From Naegleria gruberi (lineage: Eukaryota), in assembly GCA_000004985.1 (NCBI GenBank), contig GG738884.1: a DNA stretch of 64,000 nucleotides. One strand, given 5' to 3'. Numbering within the stretch: the stretch's first letter is position 1; the number at the start of each line of letters is the position of its first letter. Both the position numbers and the translations under genes were made by a program. A model generated the notes under the pieces. The model was not told the origin of the DNA and did no database searches. It worked only from the letters and a program-made list of their open reading frames with translations. Positions 3,450 through 5,989 of the stretch are shown in pieces.

Positions 3450-5989
3450 ATGGAACAAGAAATTCTTGGTGCTCTTGCTCAATTTCGTAACAAGAATCAC
3501 ACGTTTGATGAAGGTTATGTGGCAGCAATACAGTTGTTGACTCATTCCTACACTTTCACCCAATTGAATACCATTAAAAAAGATATTCAACAACGCGAGT
3601 TGAGAAACACAAAAGATTTCTTTAAAGAGTTGGCTGGATCTTACTCCAAAAATTCTGAAGGAATGACCAAGGAAGAATATTTGCAAGAATCTATTAGAAA
3701 TCTTTCTGGATTTTCTTTTGCTGATATGATCAACCTGAGCAAGGAGGAATTCTATAAAGCACTAGAAAGTAGAAAAGGCCCAAAACGTGTGGTAAGCGCT
3801 TCTACCACTCCATTGGATTCTGATAGTAGTGACGATGAAAGTCCAAAACCATCTTCCTCATCAGGCAAGAGATCATATTCATATGATCATCTATTCTCTA
3901 GACACGATTTGAGCTCCAAGTTAGATATCAGACCCAAATGCAAATATGGAAATACTTGTAATCAGTTATATGATGAAAAGCATATGAAGGAATTCTCACA
4001 TCCATTCCTACCTCCATGTTGTTTCAAAAACTCTTGCTCTGAATATGGTGATGAAGCTCACAAGTTTTCACATCCCTGTAGATATGGCTCTCAATGTAGA
4101 GAATTGAAAGATCCACATCACACCCAATACTATTCTCATGCAGAGAGAAAGGTTTGTGAACATGACAAGGAATGTCTTTGTATTCATGATAGAGATCACA
4201 TGCTTAGAGTTAAGCACACTGGTGCATTGGATTTCAGGCATGAGTGTAAGTATGGGTTATTATGCAAAGATGACTCAAGAGAACACCATTTGAAATATGC
4301 CCATCCCTCAACTTTAGGTATTCCAACAAACTTTTACGGTACGTTGAGAAATCTTATTTGAAATTAATCCTTTGTTAATTAGATATCAATCAAGATATAG
4401 ACTTTGATGCCAATGTTGTAGCTCTTTCCAGTTCTATTAGCAATTATTCAATCAATACTGGAGACCTAGCATTGATAAACATGTTATCAAAAATTGACTC
4501 TGGAGATCGTAGTGTAGATTTCATATATGAGTATGTTAATAGAATTAGCCCACAACACAGATGTAAAGAACCAATATTAAAACTCATTCTATCGCATGGC
4601 ACTTTACTATCAAGAGTTTTCCAAAAGAAAATGACAAGCTCACCAAAGGAAGCATGCATGGAGCTTGTTTTTACAAGTCCTTTAATTACACAATCCATCA
4701 TGCATGAAAGACTCACATTATCCAATGATGTTAAAAAGTGGATTGTGGAATTGTTGAACTTTCAGATAGACCAACGTGACAATAAGAATCCTAAATCTGT
4801 GACTTGCAAATTAAAATTAAGCAAAAAATGCCAGCAGGAGGTAGAAGGTGTGATTAAGGACATTGTTCGTGCCGTCTTTTCACACACAGTTACTGGTATT
4901 GGTTGCCCATTGGATTTAGCTGTGAAAACAGACCAACAGGTTTTTTCAATTGTTGGTATTAATAAGGCAGATTATTATGGTGATATTCTTTTCATACTTA
5001 ATAGGAAAATCATGTTCCATCCAGATTTTAACATGAGTTTGGAAGCTGCCACTCATTATGTGGATCGCCCTGGAGAAGCTTCAAAGACAAACAAGTGGAG
5101 AATCCCTCCTGGAAATAATTCAAACAGTAATTATGAGAATGCCAAATTGCACCCAGCTGCCAAAAACTTTCACAAATTATTAGCTAAGGATATGGCAGTA
5201 TATCATTTCAAATTATTTGGTTCTTTGCCTAAATCTGTTGATGATTTGGTAAATACCTCACTCCATGAAGATCCACACAATGTATACGAAGGTCATTTAC
5301 CTCCAATAGTCCCAGTATCTTATATTTCCCACGTTATTATGCCAAAAAAGGTATTTGATAACCTGTCTGATGCAGAAAAAAAAGTACTCAAAGTTGTCAT
5401 TTTGAAAAACAAAGCAGATAGATTAATATTCAAGGACTCTGGGCATCATCACCTTATCAAATCCCAACAATTATGGGATTGCAAGAAGCACAAATTGACT
5501 GAAATGTATTTAGGAAGATTATTGTCCTTCTCTATCATGTATCAATATGGAAAGTTCAGTATGTTGCCTCAATTAGCTCTTCATTCATCAACAAAAACAG
5601 TTATTGAACTGTGCATCAGAGGAAAGGATATTGGTATATGTCTTTCACCAACCAAGAAGGCAGATAGATCCAATTCCCTATTCATCATCATCAACAAGGT
5701 TTTCTTTTGGAAATCCAACAAGACTCCATCAACAATAATTACTGACGGCAAGAAGGAGTTGAAAAAGGTCAAGGAATTCATCCTGGGTGATATCTTTATG
5801 GAAAGATATATTTACTATACCATCACCTATAAACCTGGTAAAAAGTTGAGAGTGGAGGTGAGTGAGAAGAATAGTAATGATATTGAGAGGAAATCGTGCG
5901 AGGTTAACATCTCCCATAGTAATTTAAAGAACATACTATTCTCTAATTGGAGTTCTCTAGTAGAAGTTAAATATATTTCAATTAAATAA
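3450..5989 (+). CDS. PBZ (poly-ADP-ribose-binding zinc finger) repeat protein with ~500-aa C-terminal domain of unknown function; exons 3450..4338, 4383..5989
   Basis: At least three C-x5-C-x6/7-H-x5-H PBZ motifs with the [FY]xH tail: RPKCKYGNTCNQLYDEKHMKEFSH, CRYGSQCRELKDPHHTQYYSH, HECKYGLLCKDDSREHHLKYAH. A 44-nt intron (GTACGT..ttaattAG) joins the ORFs 3450..4361 and 4472..5989 in frame (phase 1). The C-terminal region has no recognisable motifs. Confidence 0.65.

Follow-up and report, generated by a model that had tools for sequence, protein, structure and literature searches.

Divergent PBZ-type zinc fingers joined to a predicted ADP-ribosyltransferase-fold module in a Naegleria gruberi protein

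Gene structure and zinc-finger array

The window analysed here is a 64,000-nucleotide stretch of the Naegleria gruberi genome (contig GG738884.1, assembly GCA_000004985.1), AT-rich eukaryotic DNA with a GC content of ~0.35, whose top protein match is the N. gruberi "predicted protein" P0001. The gene under study occupies positions 3450-5989 (Table 1). It encodes an array of zinc fingers related to the PBZ type, which binds poly(ADP-ribose) (PAR), followed by a C-terminal module predicted to adopt the ADP-ribosyltransferase (ART) fold, and is called the PBZ-ART gene below. In unspliced form, the ATG-initiated open reading frame (ORF) of exon 1 (3450-4361) runs into a stop, and the ORF of exon 2, which extends to 5989, lies in a different frame. 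Removal of a short intron joins the two into a spliced frame of 2496 nucleotides, or 831 codons plus TAA.

This frame, proposed in an earlier note on the same DNA, is borne out both by the splice arithmetic and by an orthologous locus in an ENA metagenome assembly (L001), with 47% identity in the module and 51% in the finger region (E 2e-44). The L001 intron (2020-2072; 53 nucleotides, GT..AG, phase 1) matches that of the window gene in position and phase. Five fingers are also encoded by L001, the fifth almost unchanged (ECKYGLLCTDESREHHFKYSHP), and the two proteins have the C-terminus ...FSNWSSLVEVKW/YIS in common, the L001 module ending ...FSNWSSLVEVKWISVDKV-stop. Residues 1-159 of the window protein have no match in L001, indicating that the N-terminal region is not conserved. 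The public model P0001 (1387 residues) is built differently. It begins at Met72, uses a GTAAGT donor within finger 5 so that this finger is skipped (window 4246-4382), splices out the last ~45 codons together with the stop and fuses on a downstream ORF, 6282-8405 (window 5859-6300). Because the orthologue keeps finger 5, the intron and the stop, these donor and stop-skipping choices are judged wrong. On the sequence evidence, the model in the earlier note is the better of the two, and the public one calls for correction. The downstream ORF, which is unrelated to the PBZ-ART gene, is Ser-rich at its N-terminus and gives no Pfam match.

Table 1. Position of the PBZ-ART gene, its parts and two adjacent genes within the window (aa, amino acid residues; nt, nucleotides; PF10283, Pfam PBZ model)
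Feature	Position	Strand	Remarks
Exon 1	3450..4338	+	aa 1-296 and first base of codon 297; N-terminal region (aa 1-159) and finger array; from ORF and splice arithmetic
Intron	4339..4382	+	44 nt; GTACGT...TTAG, GT..AG; phase 1
Exon 2	4383..5989	+	ends in TAA
Finger 1, CKYGNTCNQLYDEKHMKEFSH	3939..4001	+	aa 164-184; C-x5-C-x7-H-x5-H; PF10283 27.1 bits alone, E 4.1e-6; best PBZ match
Finger 2, CCFKNSCSEYGDEAHKFSH	4017..4073	+	aa 190-208; degenerate, H-x3-H; no Pfam match; L001 counterpart C-x5-C-x6-H-x5-H
Finger 3, CRYGSQCRELKDPHHTQYYSH	4077..4139	+	aa 210-230; C-x5-C-x7-H-x5-H; PF10283 14.2 bits, sub-threshold
Finger 4, CEHDKECLCIHDRDHMLRVKH	4155..4217	+	aa 236-256; C-x5-C-x7-H-x5-H; Gly and aromatic missing; no Pfam match; conserved in L001
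Finger 5, CKYGLLCKDDSREHHLKYAH	4245..4304	+	aa 266-285; C-x5-C-x6-H-x5-H; PF10283 10.1 bits; absent from P0001
ART-fold domain (predicted)	4385..5440	+	aa 298-649; helical insert of ~90-100 aa between first two strands and third
Low-confidence linker	5441..5593	+	~aa 650-700; predicted local distance difference test 32-51 over module-model residues 351-400; poorly aligned across the family
Galectin/concanavalin-like beta-sandwich (predicted)	5594..5989	+	~aa 701-831, then TAA
CCCH zinc fingers and PARP catalytic domain gene	2393..3379	+	PF00644 1.3e-10; ZAP-like CCCH match; adjoins the PBZ-ART gene
ADP-ribosylglycohydrolase ORF	718-1980	-	PF03747, E 3.8e-16; just beyond the CCCH-PARP gene

The five CCHH fingers share the ligand pattern C-x5-C-x6/7-H-x5-H, with the exception of finger 2, whose histidines are spaced H-x3-H. 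In a six-frame regular-expression scan of the whole 64 kb the pattern proved unique to this gene, with four matches within 366 nucleotides. Against PF10283, for which the curated cut-off is 22.7 bits, the 142-residue finger region reaches 23.8 bits and the full protein falls short at 20.6 bits. Finger 1 requires one insertion to fit the Pfam model and additionally gives weak CCCH-type matches. The fingers of APLF use x6 spacing; x7 is common in the window protein, with finger 5 conforming to x6. Both spacings recur in relatives of the protein (156 fingers with x6, 292 with x7) under a single consensus, and fingers in these relatives reach E 2e-11 against PBZ. Given this shared consensus and the strong scores in relatives, the fingers are termed PBZ-type but divergent. 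The residues of APLF that contact ADP-ribose are Y381 and an aromatic-Arg pair, Y386/R387, after the second Cys (PMC6264785). The first aromatic, within C-x-[FY]-G, is kept in fingers 1, 3 and 5 (CKYG, CRYG and CKYG), as is the H-x3-[FY]-x-H element. Binding of PAR by the array appears plausible.

The C-terminal module: family, predicted fold and candidate active site

The C-terminal 534 residues have no Pfam match at E<=1. A sequence search of the PDB with the protein returned Mad2 as its sole match, at chance level (E 0.94), for which reason a Mad2 identity was rejected, and a search with the family profile returned nothing at E<=10. The earlier note's remark that some 500 residues carry no assignable motif is therefore correct at this level; rather than matching a common housekeeping domain, the region is absent from the curated libraries. 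A word-indexed protein search gave no more than the N. gruberi protein itself, a single orthologue and a relative from a metagenome. When 1.84 billion representatives were searched exhaustively with HMMER, 200 proteins were recovered at E<=1e-3, including 95 at E<=1e-10, and iterated profiles revealed a module of ~540 positions conserved end to end in many relatives. Named members come from Naegleria and Pharyngomonas (Heterolobosea), Kipferlia (Metamonada), Diphylleia (CRuMs), Copromyxa (Amoebozoa) and many bdelloid rotifers (Adineta, Rotaria, Didymodactylos); their source names are limited to "uncharacterized", "Microbial-type PARG catalytic domain-containing" and "PBZ-type domain-containing". 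Neither the prokaryotic genomes of GTDB nor the viral contigs of IMG/VR yielded a relative in pattern scans of limited sensitivity. No description of the module was found in the literature searched, whose coverage excluded Aravind's 2015 natural history review of ARTs. By the measure of these profiles, the module is a widespread conserved family missed by curated libraries.

Structure prediction assigns the module with confidence to the ADP-ribosyltransferase fold, closest to OspC3, CopC, SopF and DarT. The figures listed for the comparison with known proteins are 11.8 for OspC3, 11.1 for CopC and 11.0 for SopF, followed by four DarT entries (10.0-10.7), Tpt1 (9.6, 7.2 and 6.9) and CC0527 (6.8). 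The last ~130 residues are predicted to resemble the galectin/concanavalin A-like fold of Methyltransf_FA (PF12248). The homologous sandwich region matches PF12248 in several relatives; the window protein has no match to this model. Two other assignments were weighed and dismissed. One, a divergent PARG or macrodomain, is contradicted by relatives in which PARG forms a domain of its own further upstream; the other, a metal-dependent hydrolase, was suggested by the His/Asp motifs and lacks fold support.

Family members share overall identities of only 20-25%. Against this background, a small set of positions is nearly invariant: H355 (97%), D474 (98%), F484 (96%), Y495-G496 (92%/98%), H509-P510-D511 (95%/97%/83%), H595 (96%), E599 (96%) and H601 (94%). 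The window protein keeps every candidate site residue. In ARTs, the residues of the catalytic triad sit in the first strand, in a middle strand and in the strand that carries the catalytic Glu. Here, H355 belongs to the first predicted strand, after which come a helix and a short strand. The core strand next in order contains F484, and a predicted strand-turn-strand hairpin begins with E599. Thus H355, F484/Y495 and E599 (92-97% conserved) occupy the expected predicted strands, the register being set by order and spacing and not by superposition. All candidate positions are covered in 92 members, of which 80 retain H355, D474, F484, Y495, E599 and H601 together. The other 12 have lost at least one candidate site residue and several of them have lost several (P0091, P0111, P0145 and P0151 are among the 12). 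These exceptions are probably pseudoenzyme paralogues, as happens when inactive members branch off from an enzyme family.

The candidate site can be set beside those of the arginine ADP-riboxanases. CopC has the triad H137-F183-E325 and requires E325/H327, D172 and D230 (PMC9239266); the corresponding residues of OspC3 are E326/H328, D177 and D231 (PMC11598138). In OspC2, translated from Shigella plasmid pCP301, the residues run D177...F186/F188-G190...F211-G212...D231...E326-Y-H328-I-P, and in the window protein D474...F484...G488...Y495-G496...D511...E599-G-H601-L-P. In sequence order, D474 and D511 follow each other at a spacing similar to that of D177/D231 in OspC3 and D172/D230 in CopC. 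A local hhalign comparison of the family profile with OspC2 gave a lone match, not significant, placed exactly on Glu-x-His-[LI]-Pro (E 0.03 and 0.015); the global mode was uninformative.

Domain company and genomic neighbourhood

Further indications as to the role of the module come from the domains found with it in Pfam scans of 84 relatives. Bacterial-type PARG (PF10021) was detected in 30 of them, PBZ in 18 and Methyltransf_FA in six; protein kinase and VWA domains occur in two each, while WWE, a PARP catalytic domain with EF-hands (P0059), ART (PF01129), ROCO, RING and GBP are found once each. When ten relatives were scanned separately, P0136, which was not among the 84, proved to have an InPase domain (PF18823) alongside the module, and one further PF12248 match was found. 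Judged by regular expression, CCHH fingers occur in several to many copies in about half of the relatives. Where PARG is present it forms a distinct domain that precedes both fingers and module. In P0002 the module comes first and the fingers after it, showing that the two have been joined in more than one order. In P0059 the module is combined with EF-hands and a PARP catalytic domain, the PARP match lying outside the module; this fusion and those with InPase, WWE, protein kinase, VWA and GBP domains are unusual.

In the window, the PBZ-ART gene adjoins a gene for CCCH zinc fingers and a PARP catalytic domain, beyond which lies an ADP-ribosylglycohydrolase (ARH) ORF, so that three ADP-ribosylation genes are found within 5.3 kb. 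An orthologue of the CCCH-PARP gene (40% identity, E 4e-72) adjoins the PBZ-ART orthologue in L001, in a different orientation; the ARH gene was not found at that locus. These fusions and linkages to PARG, PBZ, WWE, PARP, ART and ARH place the module in ADP-ribose biology.

Several other observations were made in these neighbourhoods. The tail of the CCCH-PARP protein (...TWFVVQN...) appears to place a hydrophobic residue at the third triad position (H-Y-hydrophobic), as in the mono-ART enzymes PARP7, PARP10 and PARP12. A second gene with a PARP domain is found in L001 at 7437-9074 on the minus strand (PF00644, E 1.6e-13), ~3.7 kb from the PBZ-ART orthologue. A JGI metagenome contig of 58.9 kb (L003) encodes, at ~10001-16288, a 2095-residue relative (P0063) with PARG, fingers and module. 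It is surrounded by tightly packed short ORFs almost devoid of Pfam matches, and the contig could belong to a giant virus or to a protist with fragmented gene calls. Elsewhere on the plus strand of the window, positions 8572-9891 encode an odd combination of BTB, BACK and an ALK/LTK-type glycine-rich domain (PF12810, E 2.5e-7). More ordinary neighbours on this strand are an Atg3-like gene (PF03987; 14119-15030), a gene for an NYN-domain protein (21535-23487) and Vps36/EAP30 (23642-24910).

Proposed function and relation to bacterial effectors

Taken together, the data slightly favour a three-part protein, composed of a PBZ-type array, an ART-fold enzyme and a galectin-like sandwich. The five fingers would tether the protein to PAR or to ADP-ribosylated targets made by PARPs. 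The ART-fold domain, of ~350 residues, would bind NAD+ and transfer ADP-ribose or a derivative to a substrate that the sandwich may select; acceptor candidates are a protein side chain, a nucleic acid and the PAR chain itself. Candidate residues of the NAD+ site, laid out like the H-F-E triad of CopC, are H355, F484/Y495 and E599, and D474, D511 and E599-G-H601 may be the counterparts of the aspartates and Glu-x-His motif essential in OspC3 and CopC. The suggestion in the earlier note of a new PAR-directed effector domain points in the right direction, inasmuch as relatives tie the module to the PAR machinery; we infer both the PAR direction and catalysis.

A number of results weigh against this interpretation. 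The window module has no match to any curated Pfam ART family and, among the 18 relatives for which match positions are known, no curated ART match falls on the module. The family profile finds no match by hhalign in the neighbouring PARP domain, and its match to OspC2 has a probability of 1.6-2.9%. The residue correspondences with CopC and OspC3 were drawn from order, spacing and predicted secondary structure rather than from superposition, and confidence in the models of the sandwich and linker is moderate at best. As regards the array, fingers 2-5 score under the PBZ threshold, and the aromatic-Arg pair is missing in all five fingers, being replaced by N-Q, S-E, R-E, L-C and K-D; PAR binding may consequently be weak or altered. 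The three canonical PBZ motifs described in the earlier note were in this respect overstated: finger 1 passes the Pfam threshold alone, but fingers 3 and 4 do not, and the spacing is mostly x7. Profile thresholds, which the note had named as a possible refutation, thus divide the array, with finger 1 and the finger region passing and the full protein and the remaining fingers failing.

The alternative that survives best, in our view an unlikely one, is that the module is an ART-fold pseudoenzyme or reader, binding NAD+, ADP-ribose or PAR without transfer and serving as a scaffold beside the PBZ fingers. Inactive ART folds exist in eukaryotes, for example LRRC9-ART (PMC7955679), which belongs to a different family. 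A binding role would also suffice in relatives that already have an active-looking PARG, and the 12 members with incomplete sites are compatible with it. Yet the Glu-x-His, the His, the aromatics and both aspartates are kept in 83-98% of a family otherwise so divergent, and a mere binding role does not usually preserve the Glu and both aspartates.

Somewhat less probable again is an active enzyme whose reaction is not plain ADP-ribosylation: arginine riboxanation of the OspC/CopC type, NAD+ hydrolysis, or DarT/Tpt1-like modification of nucleic acids or of the PAR chain. Arginine riboxanation is a live possibility because of the likeness to the riboxanases, which includes the Glu-x-His and the two aspartates, and the similarity to DarT and Tpt1 brings nucleic acids into play as acceptors. 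OspC3 and CopC (type III secretion effectors of Shigella and Chromobacterium; PDB 7wr5, 7xn4) share Glu-x-His with the window protein at ~10% sequence identity to the module. They are secreted bacterial effectors, whereas the window protein is an endogenous eukaryotic one. They carry a calmodulin-binding region and ankyrin repeats where the window protein has PBZ fingers and the galectin-like domain, and the Pfam scan gave no ankyrin or other match in the C-terminal part of the latter. The window protein also differs in its predicted large helical insert after the second strand, and riboxanase chemistry is only a candidate for it. SopF (a Salmonella effector and ARF-activated glutamine ADP-ribosyltransferase; PDB 7dn9; Pfam DUF3626) has different partner domains, and DUF3626 has no match in the window protein or the scanned relatives. 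DarT, the DNA ADP-ribosyltransferase of the DarTG toxin-antitoxin systems (PDB 7omv, 7yk3, 8baq), aligns over fewer residues (~160), and its Pfam model (PF14487) has no match in the window protein. DarT is paired with a macrodomain antitoxin, whereas the window protein has no fused eraser, though an ARH gene lies nearby; unlike for DarT, nothing in the analysis points to DNA as its target.

Held at the same low probability is the view that the fingers are not PAR readers and bind nucleic acid or protein instead, the ART domain being directed in some other way. The sub-threshold scores of four of the five fingers, the replaced aromatic-Arg pair and the weak CCCH-type matches of finger 1 would accord with it. 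Against it stand the C-x-[FY]-G and H-x3-[FY]-x-H elements of fingers 1, 3 and 5, the strong PBZ scores of like fingers in relatives, where they lie beside PARG, and the occurrence in one relative of WWE, another PAR-binding domain. Ranked least likely, and very improbable, is an artefact of structure prediction, the module being either an enzyme of another kind with His, Asp and Glu residues or a domain without enzymatic function, as might be argued from the fact that it has no significant sequence match to any ART and that only predicted structures were compared.

Under the favoured three-part arrangement, the protein resembles APLF, CHFR and the PBZ-PARPs of Dictyostelium and Entamoeba in joining a PAR-binding finger to a writer or other effector in one polypeptide; in the passages bearing on this point, PBZ-PARPs are recorded for Amoebozoa (PMC4245714). 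Unlike the PBZ-PARPs, its presumptive writer is not of the PARP family (no PF00644 match), and its fingers are five in tandem, divergent and mostly of x7 spacing. The same paper notes proteins of Adineta vaga that combine bacterial-type PARG with PBZ repeats, with no mention of a C-terminal module in its passages on them (PMC4245714). The bdelloid members of the family (Adineta, Rotaria, Didymodactylos), in which PARG is followed by PBZ repeats and then the module, are probably the Adineta proteins meant there; the Naegleria protein lacks their PARG part. Fusions of PBZ to a writer and the ART superfamily are already known. New are a family without Pfam, PDB-sequence or source annotation, its predicted structural kinship with bacterial effector ARTs, and the finger-ART-sandwich architecture, often preceded by PARG.

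Surveys of eukaryotic ADP-ribosylation writers rest on sequence profiles. The module matched no Pfam model tried. If active, it would be a new writer physically joined to PAR readers, and to a PARG eraser as well in relatives, and would offer a testable system for the conversion of PAR signals into a second modification. A more speculative proposal, to which we assign a low probability, is that these proteins are to eukaryotes, as endogenous enzymes, what the OspC/CopC/SopF effector clade is to bacteria. Guided by PAR, they would lay down a non-canonical mark derived from ADP-ribose, such as arginine ADP-riboxanation, and this mark might be reversed differently from ordinary ADP-ribosylation. 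In many lineages the putative enzyme shares one polypeptide with a PARG eraser and PBZ readers, and pathogens of amoebae and animals could have acquired their effectors from this family. With these proteins the OspC3/CopC/SopF fold gains, as far as the present searches show, its first eukaryotic relatives, a matter that bears on the origin of those virulence enzymes and on the question of ADP-riboxanation beyond bacterial pathogenesis.

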